Shown here: in pieces, positions 1,899 through 12,152 of the stretch
How the letters are laid out: the number at the start of each line of letters is the position of its first letter
Numbering within the stretch: position 1 is the stretch's first letter
The notes under the pieces: model-generated
The model's input: the letters and a program-made list of their open reading frames with translations, nothing else
What the model was told of the DNA's origin: nothing
The model's database searches: none
Assembly (NCBI GenBank): GCA_034530615.2
Contig: JAVRCV020000008.1
Coordinates: forward strand, 1-64,000
Source: Aulosira sp. ZfuVER01
GTDB lineage: Bacteria; Cyanobacteriota; Cyanobacteriia; Cyanobacteriales; Nostocaceae
Length of the DNA stretch: 64,000 bases
Direction: 5' to 3'
Program-made: the position numbers and the translations under genes

Positions 1899-4800
1899 AT
1901 GACGAACAGAAGATTTGCAACCATCGATGGCAATGAAGCTGTAGCCCAAGTAGTCTATCGACTCAATGAAGTCATTGCTATTTATCCAATTACTCCTTCT
2001 TCGCCAATGGCTGAGTGGGCAGATACATGGTCTAGTGAAGGAAAACCTAATATTTGGGGGACTGTTCCCTCAGTTGTACAGATGCAGAGTGAAGGCGGTG
2101 TTGCTGGCGCTGTACATGGTGCTTTGCAAACAGGTTCGCTGACGACCACATTTACAGCATCTCAGGGATTATTGTTAATGATCCCGAATATGTACAAAAT
2201 TGCCGGAGAGTTAACACCAACAGTATTTCATATTGCCGCGCGATCGCTCGCTGCTCAAGCCCTCTCGATTTTTGGCGACCATAGCGATGTGATGTCAGCG
2301 CGGAGTACTGGTTTTGCGATGCTGTGTGCTGCATCAGTGCAAGAGAGCTACGATTTTGCTTTAATCTCCACACGGGCGACATTAGAATCACGAGTACCAT
2401 TCCTGCACTTTTTTGATGGTTTTCGGACTTCCCACGAAATTAACAAACTAGAACTGTTAACAGAGGATGACTTACGAAAATTCATTCCTGATGAATTAGT
2501 ACTGGCGCATCGTTCCCGCGCCCTGACTCCCGATAAACCCGTGTTACGCGGTACAGCGCAAAACCCTGATGTCTACTTCCAAGCCAGGGAAACTGTCAAT
2601 CCTTACTACCTAGCTTGTCCAGATATCACCCAAAAAGTGATGGACGAATTTGCGGCGATGACTGGGAGACAGTACCAACTATTTGAATATTACGGCGACC
2701 CAGCAGCAGAACGAATCATCGTACTCATGGGTTCTGGTTGTGAAGCTGTCCATGAAACCGTAGATTACTTAAATAGCCGTGGTGAAAAAGTCGGTGTTGT
2801 CAAAGTTAGATTGTATCGACCCTTTGATGTAGGGCGATTTGTAGCAGCTTTACCAGCAACTACCCGTAGCATCGCCGTCCTCGACCGCACCAAAGAACCA
2901 GGCGCATCCGGTGAACCTCTGTATTTAGATGTTGTCGCTGCAATTCACGAAGCATGGGCAGATGACACGGGGAAACAGGGACACGGGGACGCGGAGAAAT
3001 TAATCACCCCCTCTCCGCGTCTCCACCTCTCCGTGTCTTCTCTCCCCAAAATCATCGGTGGTCGTTACGGTTTATCTTCTAAAGAATTCACACCAGCAAT
3101 GATTAAAGCCGTCTTCGATAATTTGGCGGCGGCTGAACAAAAAAATCATTTCACGGTGGGAATCAACGATGATGTCACCCACACCAGCTTGAATTATGAC
3201 CCGGAATTTAATATTGAACCAGACAATATAGTTAGAGCCATTTTTTATGGTTTGGGTGCAGATGGTACAGTAGGTGCTAATAAAAACTCAATCAAAATTA
3301 TTGGGGAAGACACAAACAATTACGCCCAAGGTTATTTTGTCTACGACTCTAAAAAATCAGGTTCCGTTACAGTTTCCCATCTCCGCTTTGGCGACCAACC
3401 AATTCGCTCTACATATTTGATCGATAAAGCGAATTTTGTTGCTTGTCATCAATGGGATTTTATCGAAAAATTTCCAATTCTGAAAGACATTATTCCTGGC
3501 GGTATATTCTTAATTAATTCTCCTTACGATAATGAAGAAGTTTGGCAACATTTACCGCCATCAGTACAAGAGCAAATTATCCAAAAGCATCTGCAAGTTT
3601 ATGTAATTAACGCTTACAAAGTCGCCCGTGCCGCCGGGATGGCTGGACGCATCAACACGGTAATGCAAGTTTGTTTCTTTGCCTTATCAGGTGTATTGCC
3701 AAGAGAAGATGCGATCGCAGAAATTAAAAAGTCCATCCGCAAGACTTATGGTAAGAAAGGCGATGAAATTGTCCAGATGAATATCAAGGCTGTAGATACT
3801 ACCTTAGATAATTTGTATGCAGTAGAGATTGGAGAACTCAACCTCAGTCCAACAGCCGTCTTGGAAAGTTCTGATCGCCGGGAGCCGGCGCTCAGACTTT
3901 CCGCAAAATCCGAAAATCCCCAATCAATGGAAGCTGCACCCGCTTTTGTCCGCGATGTCCTGGGTAAAATGATTGCCCGTGCCGGGGATGAACTACCCGT
4001 GAGTGCTTTACCCTGTGACGGTACGTATCCTACTGGTACAGCGAAATGGGAAAAACGTAACATTGCCCAAGAAATACCAGTTTGGGACCCCGATGTCTGC
4101 GTACAGTGTGGTAAATGCGTGATGGTCTGTCCTCATAGCGTGATTCGTAGTAAAGTTTACGAACCGCAAGAGTTAGAAAACGCACCATCGGCTTTCAAGA
4201 GTACTAATGCGAAAGATCACGATTGGAAGGGTTTAAAATACACTATCCAAGTAGCAGCCGAAGATTGTACGGGTTGCGGTATTTGCGTCGATGTTTGCCC
4301 GGCGAAGGATAAAACAGAACTACGCCGCAAAGCTATCAACATGGCTCCACAATTGCCATTACGCGAACCAGAACGAAAAAATTGGGATTTCTTCTTAAAT
4401 ATCCCTAACCCAGATAGACGAGATTTGAAGCTAACTCATATTAACCAGCAGCAAATGCAAGAACCGTTATTTGAGTTTTCTGGAGCTTGTGCTGGCTGTG
4501 GTGAGACACCCTATATTAAGTTAGCCACACAGTTGTTTGGCGATCGCATGATTGTCGCCAACGCTACTGGTTGTTCTTCGATCTATGGCGGTAATTTACC
4601 TACTACTCCTTGGACGCAAAACGCTGAAGGACGCGGCCCTGCTTGGTCTAACTCGTTATTTGAAGATAACGCCGAATTTGGACTTGGTTTTCGCGTTTCT
4701 ATCGATAAACAGGCAGAATTTGCGGCTCAATTACTCCTACAACTCACACCAGAACTAGGCGAAGATTTAGTAAATAGTATTCTCAAGGCGGTACAAAAAG

Positions 4801-5597
4801 ACGAAGCTGATATTTGGGAACAACGCGAACGAGTAGAAATACTGAAACAAAGACTAGATGAAATCATCAATTCTTCCTCAGATTCCAATCTAAAATCCAA
4901 AATCCAAAATCTAAAATCGATTGCTGATTACCTCGTGAAGAAAAGCGTCTGGATTATCGGCGGTGATGGTTGGGGTTATGATATCGGCTTTGGGGGATTA
5001 GATCACGTCTTAGCTAGCGGACGCAACGTTAATGTTCTCATCCTCGATACGGAAGTTTACTCCAACACTGGCGGACAAAATTCTAAAGCCACTCCGAAAG
5101 CAGCGGTAGCTAAATTTGCCTCTGGAGGAAAAGCTGCTGGTAAAAAAGACCTAGGCTTAATGGCGATGACTTACGGCAATGTTTATGTCGCGAGTGTGGC
5201 GATGGGTGCAAGAGATGAACACTCTCTCAAAGCATTCCTCGAAGCCGAAGCTTATGAAGGGCCATCACTAATTATTGCCTATAGCCATTGCATCGCTCAC
5301 GGCATCAACATGAGTACAGCAATGCAAAATCAAAAAGCTGCTGTCGATTCCGGTCAATGGTTGTTATATCGGTTTAATCCAGAGCGAGTCAAGCAGGGAG
5401 AAAACCCACTACAGCTTGATTCCCGCTCGCCTAAATTACCAATAGAGCAATATATGTACTTGGAAAACCGCTTCAAGATGTTGACTAAGAGTAGTCCAGA
5501 AACAGCGAAGCAGCTACTTCAAGAAGCTCAAGAAGATGTAAATACTCGTTGGCAGATGTATCAGTATTTGGCTGCACGCCAACTACATAAAGGCTAG
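1899..5597 (+). CDS. nifJ: pyruvate:ferredoxin/flavodoxin oxidoreductase
   Basis: DGNEA, YPITPS, QSEGG, two CxxCxxCxxxCP clusters, GACAGCGE, GGDGW TPP motif; 1232 aa. Confidence 0.97.
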   Translation: MTNRRFATIDGNEAVAQVVYRLNEVIAIYPITPSSPMAEWADTWSSEGKPNIWGTVPSVVQMQSEGGVAGAVHGALQTGSLTTTFTASQGLLLMIPNMYKIAGELTPTVFHIAARSLAAQALSIFGDHSDVMSARSTGFAMLCAASVQESYDFALISTRATLESRVPFLHFFDGFRTSHEINKLELLTEDDLRKFIPDELVLAHRSRALTPDKPVLRGTAQNPDVYFQARETVNPYYLACPDITQKVMDEFAAMTGRQYQLFEYYGDPAAERIIVLMGSGCEAVHETVDYLNSRGEKVGVVKVRLYRPFDVGRFVAALPATTRSIAVLDRTKEPGASGEPLYLDVVAAIHEAWADDTGKQGHGDAEKLITPSPRLHLSVSSLPKIIGGRYGLSSKEFTPAMIKAVFDNLAAAEQKNHFTVGINDDVTHTSLNYDPEFNIEPDNIVRAIFYGLGADGTVGANKNSIKIIGEDTNNYAQGYFVYDSKKSGSVTVSHLRFGDQPIRSTYLIDKANFVACHQWDFIEKFPILKDIIPGGIFLINSPYDNEEVWQHLPPSVQEQIIQKHLQVYVINAYKVARAAGMAGRINTVMQVCFFALSGVLPREDAIAEIKKSIRKTYGKKGDEIVQMNIKAVDTTLDNLYAVEIGELNLSPTAVLESSDRREPALRLSAKSENPQSMEAAPAFVRDVLGKMIARAGDELPVSALPCDGTYPTGTAKWEKRNIAQEIPVWDPDVCVQCGKCVMVCPHSVIRSKVYEPQELENAPSAFKSTNAKDHDWKGLKYTIQVAAEDCTGCGICVDVCPAKDKTELRRKAINMAPQLPLREPERKNWDFFLNIPNPDRRDLKLTHINQQQMQEPLFEFSGACAGCGETPYIKLATQLFGDRMIVANATGCSSIYGGNLPTTPWTQNAEGRGPAWSNSLFEDNAEFGLGFRVSIDKQAEFAAQLLLQLTPELGEDLVNSILKAVQKDEADIWEQRERVEILKQRLDEIINSSSDSNLKSKIQNLKSIADYLVKKSVWIIGGDGWGYDIGFGGLDHVLASGRNVNVLILDTEVYSNTGGQNSKATPKAAVAKFASGGKAAGKKDLGLMAMTYGNVYVASVAMGARDEHSLKAFLEAEAYEGPSLIIAYSHCIAHGINMSTAMQNQKAAVDSGQWLLYRFNPERVKQGENPLQLDSRSPKLPIEQYMYLENRFKMLTKSSPETAKQLLQEAQEDVNTRWQMYQYLAARQLHKG
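2964..3037. repeat. in-frame inverted repeat (GACACGGG/GACGCGGA units) inside nifJ
   Basis: gacacgggg...gacgcggaga pairs with tctccgcgtc...ccgtgtc; encodes an apparent extra loop, DTGKQGHGDAEKLITPSPRLHLSVS. Confidence 0.75.
3859..3925. repeat. in-frame small dispersed repeat inside nifJ
   Basis: hairpin ggaaagttctga...tcagactttcc; 3890-3910 is the exact reverse complement of intergenic 13083-13103. Confidence 0.75.
4885..4918. repeat. in-frame heptamer STRR (AAAATCY) inside nifJ
   Basis: ccaatctaaaatccaaaatccaaaatctaaaatc. Confidence 0.8.
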
Positions 5598-5611
5598 TGC
5601 AGGAGGTTGTT

Positions 5612-6643
5612 ATGGATTTAACTACATCTTATCTGGGAATGATATTGCGATCGCCTTTGGTTGTCTCTGCATCTCCCCTATCTGAGGATATTGAAAACTT
5701 TCGGCGCATGGAAGACGCAGGTGCAGCTGCGGTGGTGATGCATTCGCTATTTGAAGAACAGTTGCGCTTAGAACGCTACGAACTTCACCATCACCTTACC
5801 CACGGCACTGAAAGCTTTTCTGAGGCTCTGACTTACTTCCCTGAGCCAATGAGCTTTCGGGTGGGACCAGAAACGTATCTGGAGCATATCTACAAAGCCA
5901 AACAGAAGGTAAGCATTCCAATTATTGCTAGTCTCAACGGTTCATCAGTTGGTGGCTGGACGAACTATGCTAAACAGATTCAGGAAGCAGGCGCAGATGC
6001 ACTGGAACTGAATATTTACTACGTCCCTACCGACATGGAACTGACTAGTGGAGAGATTGAGCAGACTTATTTTGATATCCTGTGTTCAGTCAAAGCAGCA
6101 GTAACTATTCCTGTAGCAGTCAAACTCAGCCCCTACTTTACTAACATGGCCAATATGGCAAAACGTTTAGATGAAGCGGGTGCGAATGCGTTAGTACTGT
6201 TTAACCGCTTTTACCAGCCGGATATTAATCTCAATCACTTGGAGGTTGAACCCAACGTACTTTTAAGTACGCCGCAGTCAATGCGATTACCTTTGCGCTG
6301 GATTGCAATCCTTTATGATCGCATTCATGCCGATTTAGCTGCAACTAGTGGCATTCATAAAGGCGAAGATGTGTTAAAGATGATCATGGCTGGTGCGAAT
6401 ATCACAATGTTTGCCAGTGTACTGCTACGACATGGTATCCATTACATTCAAGTCATCGAGCAGGAAATATGCCAATGGATGGAAAAACACGAGTATGAAT
6501 CAATCAAACAAATGCAAGGGAGTATGAGTCAGAAGCATTGTCCAGATCCCAGTGCTTTTGAACGCGCCCAATATATGCGATCGCTCTCCACCTACAAATC
6601 GGAATGGAAAGCTGCTCACGATACATCCTACTACTTTGGGTAA
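5612..6643 (+). CDS. dihydroorotate dehydrogenase-like flavoprotein (nifJ partner)
   Basis: AGGAGG RBS at 5601; MDLTTSYLG...LRSPLVVSASP, ALELNIY, AVKLSPYF, LFNRFYQPD; 14 nt after the nifJ stop. Confidence 0.88.
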   Translation: MDLTTSYLGMILRSPLVVSASPLSEDIENFRRMEDAGAAAVVMHSLFEEQLRLERYELHHHLTHGTESFSEALTYFPEPMSFRVGPETYLEHIYKAKQKVSIPIIASLNGSSVGGWTNYAKQIQEAGADALELNIYYVPTDMELTSGEIEQTYFDILCSVKAAVTIPVAVKLSPYFTNMANMAKRLDEAGANALVLFNRFYQPDINLNHLEVEPNVLLSTPQSMRLPLRWIAILYDRIHADLAATSGIHKGEDVLKMIMAGANITMFASVLLRHGIHYIQVIEQEICQWMEKHEYESIKQMQGSMSQKHCPDPSAFERAQYMRSLSTYKSEWKAAHDTSYYFG

Positions 6644-6664
6644 ACAAGCTCGTAATCTAGATAG

Positions 6665-6750
6665 CACGGTGAGTCCAGCATTGCGGGAGGGTTTCTACAG
6701 GCACTTGCCACCCTTTGGGCGTTTACAAGTCTGGGAACCCTTCCAGCAAT
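6665..6750. repeat. small dispersed GC-rich repeat (SDR-like)
   Basis: gtgagtccagcattgcgggagggtttc...gggaacccttcc; GC-rich hairpin in an AT-rich spacer, resembles elements at 13150-13411 and 37890. Confidence 0.5.
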
Positions 6751-6986
6751 TTTCCTGCTTACCTCAAAAGATAAATTTTTTTATCTGAACTGTATGCCTT
6801 CTCACTCTGCTACATACACCTCGAGTTTTATCTCCTTTCTTCCAGAAGCTCGTCGCTTAATTGATTAATAGGTTACAATATATAATCCTTAAGAAAGATT
6901 GACTTCTGAATTTATTTAAATATTTATATTGCATCTTCTAAAAAAACGTTATAAATTATTAAGTTATAGGGGAATAAATTTATTTT

Positions 6987-7000
6987 GTAGTCTCAAATAC
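6987..7000 (+). promoter_or_regulatory. possible NtcA box (GTA-N8-TAC)
   Basis: GTAgtctcaaaTAC about 400 nt upstream of invB; no clean -10 box at the canonical spacing. Confidence 0.3.
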
Positions 7001-7400
7001 TAGTCCTGCTTAATACAGATACTGTAACTAGTTAAATTTTAAGGAAACGTTAAACAGTGCTAGCAATATATTTTTAGTTGGGAAAGCAAACATTCCATAT
7101 ATGAAAGTGGATTGGTAATCAATCTAAAAATATATTTTGCATAGGTGCTTTAAAAGTAATATTATTGCTTAAGGTGAAAAAATAAATCTTTTTATTCACC
7201 AAAACGAGCGTTGCTTAAAAGCAAACTAACTGTCAATTAAGCTGCAAAAAATGGCAGTTATAGACATTTTTTTAGACTTCATTATTTATTCCCAAATTCT
7301 ATTTGCTATTCAAAAAATCATCTTTGTTATGATCGTAATAGCAGCATAAATCAAAACGCATCTACCACACATTTACAATCCTCATGGAGTTATTCTGGCG

Positions 7401-8849
7401 ATGCAGATAAACGAATTGGTAATAGCTGAAAATATAGAAGAAGAAGCCTGGCAAGCACTAGAAAAGTCGATTCTCTATTATCAAGGTCGTCCTGTTGGGA
7501 CTTTAGCCGCATACGATCCGTCTGTAGAGGCGCTGAATTATGACCAATGCTTTATTCGAGATTTTGTTTCGTCGGCGCTAATTTTTTTGCTCAAAGGTAA
7601 AACAGAAATAGTCCGCAATTTTCTCGAAGAAACCTTAAATTTACAGCCTAAAGAAAGGGCATTAGATGCATATAAACCGGGAAGAGGTTTAATTCCAGCT
7701 AGCTTCAAAGTTGTATCTCTCAATGGCGAGGAATATTTAGAAGCCGATTTTGGCGAACACGCGATCGCGCGAGTCACACCTGTGGATTCTTGTCTGTGGT
7801 GGATTATTTTGTTGCGTGCTTATGTAGTCGCTACTAAAGATTATTCCCTCGCCTATCAACCTGAATTTCAAAACGGTATCAGGTTGATTATGGAAATCTG
7901 CTTGGCTAATCGTTTTGATATGTACCCAACGCTGTTGGTTCCAGATGGCGCTTGTATGATTGACCGACGTTTGGGTATATACGGTCATCCTCTAGAAATT
8001 CAAGTTTTATTCTATACGGCTCTGCGTGCTGCTCGTGAGTTGCTAATTTGTCAAGGTAATTCAGATATTGTGGCAGCAATTGATAATCGCTTACCTCTTT
8101 TATGCGCTCATATTCGTCAACATTATTGGATAGATATTAATCGCCTAAATGCGATTTACCGCTTTAAGAGTGAAGAGTATGGCAAAGGAGCAGTTAATTT
8201 ATTCAATATATATGTAGATTCTCTTCCCTATTACGAATTAGACAAATGGTTGCCGACAAAAGGTGGTTATTTAGCTGGTAATGTTGGCCCTTCGCAACTA
8301 GATACACGCTTCTTTTCCCTTGGGAATTTAATGGCGATCATTTCCGATCTTGCAACTGAAGAACAGTCGCAAGCAATTATGACTCTGATTGAGGAACGCT
8401 GGGAAGATTTGGTGGGAGATATGCCAATGAAAATTTGTTTCCCAGCTTTAGAACACGAAGAGTATAGAATTGTCACCGGATGCGATCCGAAAAATATTCC
8501 CTGGTCTTATCATAATGCTGGCAGTTGGCCAGTTTTGATGTGGATGATGGCAGCGGCTGCTGTGAAAACGAAAAAAACAGGTTTAGTGAAAAAGGCGATT
8601 GAACTTGCCCAAACACGTTTGAGTGAAGATGAATGGCCAGAATATTACGATGGCAAAAAAGGACGATTAATTGGTAAGCAAGCTAGGAAATATCAAACTT
8701 GGTCAATTGCTGGGTTCTTATTAGCAAAAGAACTGATAGCTAACCCCAGTTATTTACGAATGGTCAGTTTTGATGAATTATCCCCAGAAGCAGTTTCTAG
8801 AGCCTGTGAGTTTGAAATTGGCAGTATAGATCCCTACACATCTAGATAG
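7401..8849 (+). CDS. invB: alkaline/neutral invertase (GH100)
   Basis: [32 protein letters not shown] (D188), [14 protein letters not shown] (E414); GGAG RBS. Confidence 0.92.
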
Positions 8850-8907
8850 TAGTAATGAATTTATTGCTACTAAAATAGTCTGATTGTTCGGGATAAACAA
8901 TATTCTC

Positions 8908-8943
8908 AAAGCTCCTTTGTATCTAAAGGGGCTTTTATTTTTT
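8908..8943 (+). terminator. rho-independent terminator after invB
   Basis: aaagctccttt-gtatct-aaaggggcttt stem followed by a T-run. Confidence 0.6.
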
Positions 8944-9182
8944 CTGAATTGCTCTCTACGATCAGTTGAAGTATATCTCATCAAAGAAGCGAACTAATTT
9001 AAAAAATTAGGCTATCCTGAAAGAATAGACAATGAAATATAGTGCTGGAGAGAGTGATAATAAAGCTCAGTAACTATATATCTTGGTCTCGATAACTCAA
9101 CAAAAAAAAGTATTACAGCAATTAAGAAAAATAACCGTATCATTTACTGCCGAAATCCAAGAAATATGGAGTATTTCTCGCA

Positions 9183-10598
9183 ATGGCAAGAGAGGAATTA
9201 GTATTATTTGATGAGATAGAGAAACAGGCATGGGAACTACTAGAAAAGTCTATTATTTACTATCAAAGTCGCCCTATAGGTACAATCGCTGCTGGCGAGA
9301 CATCACAAATAGCATTGAATTACGACCATTGCTTTGTCAGAGATTTCGTACCCTCAGCCTTACTTTTTTTAATTAAAGGTAGATATGATATCGTCCGTAA
9401 TTTTCTGGAAGAAACTTTAAAATTACAGCCAACTGAAAATCTCTTGAATGCTTATACGCCTAATCGAGGATTGATACCAGCAAGTTTCAAAGTTGTATCA
9501 ACAAATGGGCAAGAAACTTTAGAAGCAGATTTTGGTGAACATGCGATCGCGAGAGTTACACCAGTTGATTCTTGTTTATGGTGGATTATTATTTTATATT
9601 CCTATGTCAAAGCCACCAAAGATATAAATTTCGCCTTGCAACCTGAGTTTCAGCAGGGAATAATGTTAATAATGGAACTTTGCTTGGCGACTCGATTTGA
9701 TATGTACCCAACGCTATTGGTTCCAGATGGTGCTTGTATGATTCAACGGCGTTTGGGTATTTATGGGTATCCTTTAGAAATTCAAGCCCTATTCTATGGA
9801 GCATTGCGTGCTGCTCGCAAGTTACTAATTTGTGCAGGCGATGAAGAGATTGTTATAGGTATTGATAATCGCTTACCTCTATTACGAGATCATATTCGGA
9901 ATCATTATTGGATAGATATGAATCGCCTGAATGCAATTTATCGCTTTAAGGGTGAAGAATATGGCCATACAGCCGTCAATCAGTTCAATATATATGCAGA
10001 TTCGATTGCTTATGCTAAGTTGGCTCTTTGGTTACCAAAACTTGGTGGTTATTTAGCTGGTAATGTTGGTCCGTCGCAGCTAGATACTCGCTTCTTTTCT
10101 CTAGGAAATCTGATGGCGATTCTTACTTCTTTAGCTAGCGATCGCCAATCACAAGCAATTATGAATTTGATTGAAGAACAGTGGGAAGACTTAGTAGCAG
10201 AAATGCCAATGAAAATCTGTTTCCCTGCTATAGAAAAAGAAGAGTACAGAATTTTTACAGGATGCGATCCCAAAAATCTACCTTGGTCTTACCATAATGC
10301 TGGCAGTTGGCCTGTCTTATTGTGGTTGCTAAGTGCTGCTGCTCAAAAAACAGGTAGAACAAGTATTGCTCAACGCGCTATTGAAATTGCCCAAACCCGC
10401 CTTAGTGAAGATGAATGGCCGCAATATTACGATGGGACGAGGGGATTGTTAATTGGGAAAGAAGCTAGAAGATATCAAACTTGGACAATTACCGGATTTT
10501 TGTTGGCAAAAGAATTGATGTGTAACCCCGATCATTTAGAATTAATTAGTTTTGCAGAATTTGATTTAAATAATGCTTCTCAAGTTTGTGACTTGTAA
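9183..10598 (+). CDS. GH100 invertase paralog with both catalytic acids replaced by Gln (putative pseudoenzyme)
   Basis: colinear with invB, but MIQRR (Q188) and WPQYYD (Q414); intact ORF with GGAG RBS. Confidence 0.9.
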
Positions 10599-10787
10599 CT
10601 CTAATCTACTCCTAACTTATCCATACAAGCTAATAATTTGCTTCATCACGTGCATAACATTGTTTTAACCATAATTTATTTAAAACTAATCTCTTAGTTT
10701 AGTTATACAGATGATTGACTATTAAATTTAGTATAATTTCGATTCCCTAATCAGAGAAAATTAAAATCCAACAGTTTAAATATTTCC

Positions 10788-12152
10788 ATGATAAACCCCC
10801 GTCAAATAGCTTTTCTTGCCCTGCGAGATGTTCACAAAGGAGCTTATGCTGATGTTGCCCTCGATAAAGTACTGCAAAAGGTTAAATTACAGGATAGCGA
10901 TCGCCGTTTAGTCACAGAATTAGTTTATGGCAGTGTGAGAAGGCAACGCACTCTCGATGCTTTAATTGACCAATTGGGCAAAAAGAAATCCCATCAACAA
11001 CCAAAAGACCTCCGTACTATCCTGCATCTAGGTTTCTATCAACTTTGCTATCAAGAACGAATTCCCGCTTCTGCGGCTGTCAACACTACAGTCCAACTGG
11101 CCAAAGAAAACGGCTTTGCTGGACTGACAGGTTTTGTGAATGGTCTGTTGCGTCAGTATATTCGTCTTGCAGAAAATAACAAAGGAGATTATCCACATCT
11201 GCCCTTGCAACTTCCAGAAAACCCTGTAGAACGCTTGGGAATTTTACACAGTTTTCCTAACTGGATTATTCAAGTATGGTTAGAACAACTGAGCTTTGCT
11301 GAGACAGAACAGTTGTGTGAATGGATGAATCAATCACCAACAATTGATCTGCGAATCAACCCGCTTCGCACTTCTATAGATGTGGTTGAAAAGGCGTTGC
11401 AATCGGCTGATGTTTTGGTGAAGCGCCTACCTAATTTGCCACAAGCTTTAAGATTAATTAGTAACAGCGGCCCGATTCAAAATTTACCTGGCTTCAATGA
11501 AGGTTGGTGGGTTGTACAAGATGCTAGCGCTCAGTTGGTGAGTCATTTGCTCGATCCACAACCCGGAGAAGTAGCGATCGATGCTTGTGCTGCACCAGGG
11601 GGAAAAACAACTCACATCGCTGAATTGATGGGAGATCGGGGGAAAATTTGGGCTTGCGATCGCACTGCTTCCCGACTGCGTAAACTCCAAGAAAATGCAC
11701 GGCGGTTGAATTTGCAATCTATTCAAATTTGTACTGGCGACAGTCGGCAATTCTTACAATTTCAAAATACCGCAGATCGCGTATTATTAGACGCACCATG
11801 CTCTGGTTTGGGAACTTTGCACCGTCATGCTGATGCACGTTGGCGACAGACACCAGAAAGCGTCCAAGAACTTTCAAAGCTGCAAACAGAATTGCTAGCA
11901 CATACCTCAACTTTTGTTAAATCAGGTGGAATCCTAGTCTACGCCACTTGTACGCTACATCCAGCAGAAAATGAAGCGGTAATTTCTGCGTTTTTAGCTG
12001 AGTCTCCTAATTGGGAAATAGAGCCACCTGATGTTAATTCGCCTGTTTTTGCCTATTCCACCCCACAAGGTTGGTGCAAAGTATGGCCTCATCGCCAGAA
12101 TATGGATGGCTTTTTTATGGTTCGCTTAAGAAAAACTAATAATTCCGGGTGA
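10788..12152 (+). CDS. rsmB: 16S rRNA m5C967 methyltransferase
   Basis: NusB-like N-terminus, QDASAQ, DACAAPGGKT, DAPCSG, YATCT. Confidence 0.95.
   Translation: MINPRQIAFLALRDVHKGAYADVALDKVLQKVKLQDSDRRLVTELVYGSVRRQRTLDALIDQLGKKKSHQQPKDLRTILHLGFYQLCYQERIPASAAVNTTVQLAKENGFAGLTGFVNGLLRQYIRLAENNKGDYPHLPLQLPENPVERLGILHSFPNWIIQVWLEQLSFAETEQLCEWMNQSPTIDLRINPLRTSIDVVEKALQSADVLVKRLPNLPQALRLISNSGPIQNLPGFNEGWWVVQDASAQLVSHLLDPQPGEVAIDACAAPGGKTTHIAELMGDRGKIWACDRTASRLRKLQENARRLNLQSIQICTGDSRQFLQFQNTADRVLLDAPCSGLGTLHRHADARWRQTPESVQELSKLQTELLAHTSTFVKSGGILVYATCTLHPAENEAVISAFLAESPNWEIEPPDVNSPVFAYSTPQGWCKVWPHRQNMDGFFMVRLRKTNNSG

Follow-up and report, generated by a model that had tools for sequence, protein, structure and literature searches.

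The locus examined here raises a simple question: why is a complete second copy of an invertase gene kept directly behind the first, when it encodes neither of the two catalytic acids? It lies in a stretch of 64,000 nucleotides from Aulosira sp. ZfuVER01 (GenBank assembly GCA_034530615.2, contig JAVRCV020000008.1, positions 1 to 64,000), hereafter the window, to which all coordinates below refer unless a contig or locus label is given; the genome of the window is referred to as G000. The answer that we hold with about even confidence is that this copy 2 is a non-hydrolysing pseudo-invertase that co-assembles with the invertase InvB and tunes it. The genes and codons concerned are as follows.

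7401..8849, plus strand: invB orthologue (copy 1), an active-type GH100 invertase of 482 amino acids (open reading frame, PDB match, PF12899)
7962-7964, plus strand: codon 188 of copy 1, GAC (D188)
8640-8642, plus strand: codon 414 of copy 1, GAA (E414)
9183..10598, plus strand: copy 2, a putative pseudo-invertase of 471 amino acids with the GH100 fold, in a clade of tandem paralogues lacking Asp188 (open reading frame, alignment, tree, model)
9744..9746, plus strand: codon 188 of copy 2, CAA (Gln), catalytic Asp replaced; Tyr, His, Phe or Gln in the clade
10422..10424, plus strand: codon 414 of copy 2, CAA (Gln), catalytic Glu replaced, in a small subgroup only
10788..12152, plus strand: rsmB (16S rRNA methyltransferase), the usual 3′ neighbour and a synteny marker outside the system

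Both reading frames are open throughout, and the two proteins align colinearly without internal gaps (340 of 471 residues identical). Residues 186-190 and 412-417 read MIDRR and WPEYYD in copy 1 and MIQRR and WPQYYD in copy 2; both copies share the motifs [23 protein letters not shown] and YQTW. These codons and both motif pairs had been reported in an earlier note made from the sequence, and all were exact on re-reading. Its statement that the frame and the neighbouring motifs of copy 2 are preserved also holds, given the open frame, the gap-free alignment and the match to all 435 positions of Pfam PF12899 (Glyco_hydro_100; 729 bits for copy 1 and 697.6 bits for copy 2, cut-off 23.6). The best PDB match of copy 1 is 5z73, Alr0819/InvB (E 4e-280). 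G000 has exactly three GH100 matches, the third of which is more distant, lies on contig C23 and keeps both acids. We take the conserved motif residues to line the sugar pocket, following the earlier note rather than coordinates, and we assume that Asp is the acid and Glu the base of the catalytic pair. In the available parts of two papers (PMC6995568, PMC10661998), the catalytic role in InvA is assigned tentatively to Asp188 and Glu414, and Arg430 of InvB is named as the residue that helps Glu415. The Arg equivalent to InvB Arg430 is present in copy 2 as R429. Copy 2 is a GH100 protein by sequence and fold, but it lacks the catalytic residues of an active invertase. The idea that the sucrose-complex crystals of InvA and InvB were Glu-to-Gln mutants was ruled out, as the deposited sequences have Glu.

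The earlier note had regarded the replacement of precisely these two acids by Gln as the selected feature. Comparison with relatives did not bear this out. In an alignment of 43 clade members, a set partly chosen for lacking Asp188, this residue is absent from all 43, and it is present in all 42 paired invB genes; Glu414 is retained in 39 members, and the double-Gln state (Q/Q) occurs in only four. As far as the aligned sequences tell, the constant feature of the clade is the loss of Asp188, not Q/Q. Asp188 is found in 92 of the 98 distant family representatives that span the site (of 150), and the other six look like fragments or poor alignments. R53, D54, I122, D129, R189, R190, W368, H371, N372, W376, W412, Y416 and W434 are invariant in all 43 members, R429 is kept in 42, and the changes Q49H and H196Y near the pocket are typical of the clade.

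How widely the paralogue occurs was examined by several searches. A search of 41 genomes with copy 2 gave a second copy at 83-100% identity in 13 of the 15 genomes of its own genus and in one of another genus. Residue 188 in these 14 copies is Gln in five, His in eight and Tyr in one, and residue 414 is Gln in only four (G000, G006, G008 and G013), G003 being Gln/Glu. The G003 paralogue (L034) also carries Y415C, Y370H and A121T in otherwise invariant motifs, perhaps a further relaxation. Among the best 120 of 3138 protein matches, 35 of the top 36 lack Asp188, the remaining 85 are Asp/Glu, and all 120 keep Glu414. A scan of all species, with one genome per species and a pattern requiring a non-G codon at 188 (which misses G-starting codons and divergent flanks), gave 39 loci. 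Of these, 38 bear the label of a heterocyst-forming genus, of Nostocales or of an uncultured cyanobacterium; Nodularia, Anabaena, Anabaenopsis, Nostoc, Tolypothrix, Calothrix, Mojavia, Halotia and others are represented. A metagenome-assembled genome labelled Chroococcales (L054), with an invB-paralogue-rsmB block, nests with Halotia and Atlanticothrix in the tree and is probably a mislabelled Nostocales bin. The frame is intact in all 39 loci and is exactly 471 amino acids long in 36. The paralogue lies directly behind an intact invB in 38, the remaining locus being at a contig end, and in the loci compared neither an extra domain nor any partner gene besides invB travels with it.

Because the non-G-codon pattern excludes Asp by design, a second pattern, which left codon 188 free and used the clade marker G-[YF]-G-Y-P as its anchor, was run on 360 genomes of Nostocaceae. 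Its 55 matches have Tyr (29), His (16), Gln (5), Phe (2) or Asp (3) at site 188; of the three Asp matches, one is a single-copy invB and the other two are sister duplicates. An Asp-less copy is present in 52 of the 360 genomes, in 16 genera, bloom-forming Nodularia and Anabaena cylindrica PCC 7122 included. No other Asp188-less GH100 lineage was found in the 39 all-species loci, and none convincing among the 150 distant representatives listed. Databases name the clade proteins 'neutral invertase' or 'beta-fructofuranosidase', so that the invertase counts for these genomes are probably too high.

The order of events was examined with a tree of 104 proteins (Shimodaira-Hasegawa-like approximate likelihood ratio test, SH-aLRT; quick mode without bootstrap). 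All 51 Asp-less rows group together in a single clade (SH-aLRT 100), and its sister group consists of copies keeping Asp and Glu from Gloeotrichia, Cyanomargarita and one further source. In both loci checked (L090:6231-7646 and L091:5618-7030), the Asp-keeping copies lie directly behind invB; since they share the tandem position, the tandem duplication of invB preceded the loss of Asp188. The duplicates of Gloeotrichia (P0036) and Cyanomargarita (P0043) have the GYP and GTRGLL/GSRGLL markers, but in them Asp188 and Glu414 are both still present and the intergenic palindrome described below is missing (11/19 matches in both). They mark the pre-loss state and are possibly third active invertases there. 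Asp188 was lost once, in an ancestor of many Nostocaceae. After the loss, site 188 changed between Tyr, His, Phe and Gln one base at a time, the Gln188 of the Q/Q state being reached through His, and the change of Glu414 to Gln came last, in the subgroup of this strain. The earlier note had correctly counted two nucleotide changes from GAC to CAA, but the one-step intermediates CAC and CAT (His) occur in relatives. Monophyly of the Q/Q copies has weak support in the protein tree (90) and they are split in the DNA tree; because of this disagreement, E414Q is best said to have arisen once or twice. Q/Q is the end of a series rather than its defining event, because the duplication, the Asp188 loss and the moves at site 188 came earlier.

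A duplicate with these losses might be decaying without function. Its patchy occurrence and its proven loss from close relatives would be expected in that case, as would the ratio of nonsynonymous to synonymous substitution rates (dN/dS), which in codon models for 42 genomes is about 1.6 times that of invB (0.086 for 460 codons of the paralogue and 0.055 for 478 codons of the paired invB). For the four Q/Q sequences, however, dN/dS is 0.084 and a value of 1 was rejected (log-likelihood -2744.1 vs -2868.3), and the pairwise values against copy 2 are 0.08-0.15 in 41 of 41 comparisons. What true decay leaves behind is seen in G011, where a recent deletion has left only a stop-ridden 42-codon remnant of the paralogue C-terminus between invB and rsmB (L047:5746-5871), against the intact frames of the 39 loci. 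Neither a broken frame nor a dN/dS near 1, the marks of a pseudogene, is found in copy 2. Purifying selection on the paralogue is strong, both in the clade and in its Q/Q subgroup, and the earlier note was right that copy 2 is kept rather than decaying; decay is barely credible and is already refuted by the selection data, unless the protein should prove never to be made. A catalytic residue lost clade-wide beside a kept active paralogue, with the rest of the protein under purifying selection, is the pattern of a pseudoenzyme. Apart from this, an invB-like gene split into several frames with stops was observed in a genome of the same family with 93% completeness (G016:C5:1246991-1248322), which reflects decay or an assembly error.

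Purifying selection would also act on an enzyme with changed chemistry or substrate. In such an enzyme His188 or Tyr188 would serve as a weak acid, or the missing function would fall to a different residue or an external nucleophile, and the outcome would be slow hydrolysis, a transfer reaction or activity towards a different alpha-glucoside. The retention of Glu414 in 39 and of Arg429 in 42 of the 43 members, the predominance of His and Tyr at 188 (45 of 52 cases) and the clade-fixed changes Q49H and H196Y fit this possibility. However, a Phe or Gln at 188 is unable to act as a proton donor, and the Q/Q members, with neither acid, are under the same selection. In addition, site 188 shows seven parsimony changes on the tree, against a mean of 2.8 per site and none at M186, R189 and R190, which is unlike a catalytic site. 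In related phosphorylases the base is lost and the acid is kept, the reverse of the pattern found here. An altered enzyme is therefore unlikely. Because site 188 toggles among Tyr, His, Phe and Gln, and because acid-less members are as constrained as the rest, copy 2 is very probably without sucrase activity. Once Asp188 was gone, Glu414 would have been free to become Gln in this subgroup, because catalysis would have gone with Asp188.

The structure of copy 2 was then considered. A single-sequence fold reached a predicted local distance difference test value (pLDDT) of 39, and an alignment of 66 rows was used instead. The resulting model (pLDDT 83.1, predicted template modelling score 0.89; low confidence for the segment around 188) has the (alpha/alpha)6-barrel fold of InvA and InvB. 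It matches InvB 5z73 with Z 52.4 and a root-mean-square deviation of 1.7 Å over 431 aligned residues (73% identity), and the nearest non-GH100 entry has Z 28.5. A complex model of InvB with copy 2 scored 0.87, the best of three controls 0.00; at least 93% of the contacts were shared between runs, the partner pLDDT was at least 87, and the mark applied is passed by 116 of 157 solved complexes and by 2 of 215 mismatched pairs. This model shows an interface still compatible with InvB, a prediction that does not itself establish binding. The modelled interface is pseudo-symmetric and includes loops 117-126, 189-190 and 356-364, which adjoin the pocket motifs. Consensus identity between invB and the paralogue is 65/76 in the interface and 291/387 elsewhere (p 0.054).

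Transcription of one orthologue was found. Nodularia spumigena CCY9414 encodes a Tyr/Glu member (P0284), and RNA-seq of its N2-fixing cultures comprises 12 samples from non-stranded libraries (PMC9846622). The gene order in the table of that paper is terB, rsmB, a hypothetical gene, NSP44640 and NSP44650, and NSP44640 was taken to be the paralogue because this matches the conserved order. According to the rows for these genes, NSP44640 is found in all 12 samples; its level is 0.26-0.43 that of invB and 1.6-4.1 times that of rsmB, and its transcript tracks invB (r 0.85), not rsmB (r 0.00). The shared operon number in the table is a software prediction only. The step-down to about a third fits partial read-through, with a co-regulated promoter as the alternative. 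A metatranscriptome among the public runs was not used as expression evidence: the word share was 0.09, a relative's contig covers 9105-10520, DNA carry-over is possible, and depth cannot rank genes. The differential salt tables of PMC5853447, which differ in locus tags, contain no invertase row, and neither invB nor the paralogue appears in three supplements of the transcription start site map of PMC3610870. In the available part of a proteomics preprint on A. cylindrica, invertase was below detection in heterocysts and akinetes.

The Q/Q copy is not private to this strain: it belongs to a conserved clade with kept synteny and one transcribed orthologue. The earlier note had named as contrary evidence a variant unique to this strain with dN/dS near 1 and no expression; on the genomic side this is not what was seen, because selection, synteny, distribution and transcription were all found. 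The spacer between the two genes carries the following elements.

8883..8901, no strand assigned: 19-bp imperfect palindrome with a TGT-N9-ACA core, 7 nucleotides before the terminator and 300 nucleotides before the copy-2 start
8908..8945, plus strand: intrinsic-terminator-like hairpin (8908-8935) with a T-rich tail (scan, fold, conservation)
9168..9171, plus strand: GGAG, ribosome-binding-site-like, ahead of copy 2; the same ahead of copy 1 (sequence; most aligned upstream regions)

The hairpin at 8908-8935 has 12 pairs and is followed by the T-rich tail. A scan gave four such sites, against 3.6 ± 2.0 in shuffled sequences, which is no rarer than chance; the region 8850-8960 folds at z -2.9, and the GGG..TTT arm of the hairpin recurs in 30 of 39 intergenic regions. 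Since the scan count matches the shuffles, the support for a terminator comes from conservation. The earlier note had placed a terminator here and proposed separate regulation of the two genes; the hairpin is indeed present, but separate regulation is doubtful, as the Nodularia transcripts co-vary.

The palindrome reaches at least 15 of 19 consensus matches in 27 of the 39 intergenic regions, a count that leans upward because the consensus was drawn from the same loci, and in 26 it stands just before the hairpin arm; among 1000 random windows of 350 nucleotides, four reached 15 matches. The site is the best match of its matrix in G000 (23.7, next 19.1), although it was itself in the training set. 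A wider regulon was rejected, since no other site in G000 comes near. Two sister genomes of the same genus, G001 and G011, yielded no paralogue. They retain an intact hairpin but carry changes in the TGT and ACA arms (matrix scores of 9.5 and -6.1, against 18.3-29.6), which hints that the palindrome serves copy 2; these changes are probably one event. The palindrome may act as an operator on the DNA or, in the RNA, as an element that gates read-through, and we take its core to resemble a non-canonical NtcA-type spacing. The fourth-best matrix match (18.0) lies at G000:C48:84106, 63 nucleotides upstream of a minus-strand reading frame of 900 amino acids, the start of which presumably resembles cyanophycin synthetase; this palindrome-like site is probably due to chance. 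A canonical NtcA-type GTA-N8-TAC was also observed at 6987-7000, 414 nucleotides before invB; it was not counted, as such a site lies within 500 nucleotides in only 2 of 38 other loci and occurs in 4 of 39 intergenic regions. Rfam gave no match in 6600-11000. Just 5′ of invB, window positions 1899-6643 carry a pyruvate:ferredoxin/flavodoxin oxidoreductase gene followed by a dihydroorotate-dehydrogenase-like gene. Their link to invB looks local, because this pair was not found within about 2.5 kb upstream in 39 related loci.

An inactive subunit of InvB appears to be the best reading of copy 2, because its linkage to invB is constant, its transcript is sub-stoichiometric and co-varying, the interface is kept, and no other partner gene is present. 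Copy 2 would be a tandem duplicate of invB that lost Asp188 once and has since been kept for a non-hydrolytic job. It would fold like InvB, keep most of the sugar pocket and of the subunit interface, and be made at a fraction of the InvB level. It is predicted to join InvB oligomers as a catalytically dead, sugar-binding subunit and to tune sucrose breakdown, damping or stabilising being likelier than boosting.

Several results weigh against this reading. One is that the co-variation comes from 12 non-stranded samples of one study and one Tyr/Glu strain, with neither gene flagged significant. Another is that solved oligomers exist for the GH100 family (5gor has six chains), so that the pass of the complex model may reflect likeness or memory only; interface conservation, too, is confounded with conservation of the pocket and core and is equally expected of a homo-oligomer. 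In 305 of the 360 genomes, among them the whole of the largest genus, the marker pattern gave no match, although an exact pattern can miss members, and with the remnant in G011 this indicates that copy 2 is dispensable. Finally, ligand binding is not assured: N46 (37/43) and Y47 (24/43) are relaxed in the clade, and sucrose may be kept out by a bulky residue at 188.

The relaxation of N46 and Y47 in several lineages and the bulky residues at 188 would suit a ligand-independent scaffold or chaperone that stabilises or localises InvB or another protein, the pocket being conserved as part of the fold, and so would the within-clade conservation, which is higher in the interface (0.92) than in the rest (0.87). 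Such a role is decidedly unlikely, given that the polar pocket residues R53, D54, H371 and R189 show no change anywhere on the tree, which is beyond the needs of a scaffold.

The interface itself also carries 7 of the 23 clade-fixed differences (76 of 463 positions), and these could mean insulation from InvB rather than partnership. Together with the distinct GTRGLL surface patch of copy 2, which could bind another partner, they leave room for a stand-alone sugar binder or sensor. In that case copy 2 would assemble with itself, hold sucrose or glucose without turning it over, and pass a signal to that partner or act as a buffer for it. The pocket residues that stay invariant while the catalytic Asp is released, and the conserved palindrome as an upstream element of its own, point in the same direction. 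Nevertheless, no additional domain or partner gene accompanies copy 2 apart from invB, most interface positions match InvB, and the transcripts track invB, which make a stand-alone binder somewhat improbable.

Among known systems, InvB (Alr0819; 5Z73/5Z74) and InvA (5GOO-5GOR) of Anabaena PCC 7120 have the Pfam family, fold and pocket motifs in common with copy 2, which differs from them in lacking Asp188 and here also Glu414. Plant 'defective invertases' such as tobacco Nin88 (GH32) cannot split sucrose and have been proposed as regulators of active invertases by competitive binding (PMC11821009, available part). Nin88 is, like copy 2, a non-splitting invertase paralogue, but it belongs to an unrelated family and fold without GH100 homology, is a cell-wall protein and is changed at Asp239/Trp47. 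Further analogies are offered by the large subunit of plant ADP-glucose pyrophosphorylase, by PDX1.2 and by the non-catalytic isoamylase ISA2. ISA2 (GH13) assembles with its active relative in ISA1/ISA2 heteromers (PMC12516185, available part); it is eukaryotic, of another family and not a tandem gene, and is a mechanistic analogy rather than a relative of copy 2. No description of a non-catalytic GH100 protein was found in the accessible text of open-licence papers and bioRxiv, a coverage that leaves subscription journals outside, and a review table gives CCY9414 two invertases without comment (PMC4390843, available part). The clade is real and conserved, and as a pseudo-enzyme group it is apparently undescribed.

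These findings bear on the supply of fuel for nitrogen fixation. InvB is described as active in heterocysts and needed for diazotrophic growth, and an assay by complementation of an invB mutant exists (PMC10299089 among the sources, as far as available). InvB controls the sucrose supply that fuels N2 fixation in heterocysts, and its post-transcriptional tuning is little understood; a dead twin long kept in 16 genera is a candidate regulator of it. The genes are small, and crystals of soluble homologues exist. Within the clade and its sister copies, a natural series also leads step by step from enzyme to pseudo-enzyme, from D/E through Y/H/F-E and Q/E to Q/Q. Tentatively, copy 2 may be a sugar-sensing GH100 pseudo-enzyme dosed into InvB oligomers by regulated read-through or by a palindrome operator, thereby setting how much sucrose is burnt for N2 fixation by heterocyst-forming cyanobacteria and how much is kept as osmolyte. 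If this were true, it would be the first GH100 pseudo-enzyme and a direct prokaryotic sensor of sucrose or glucose, derived from the same enzyme family to which plants owe their cytosolic invertases.

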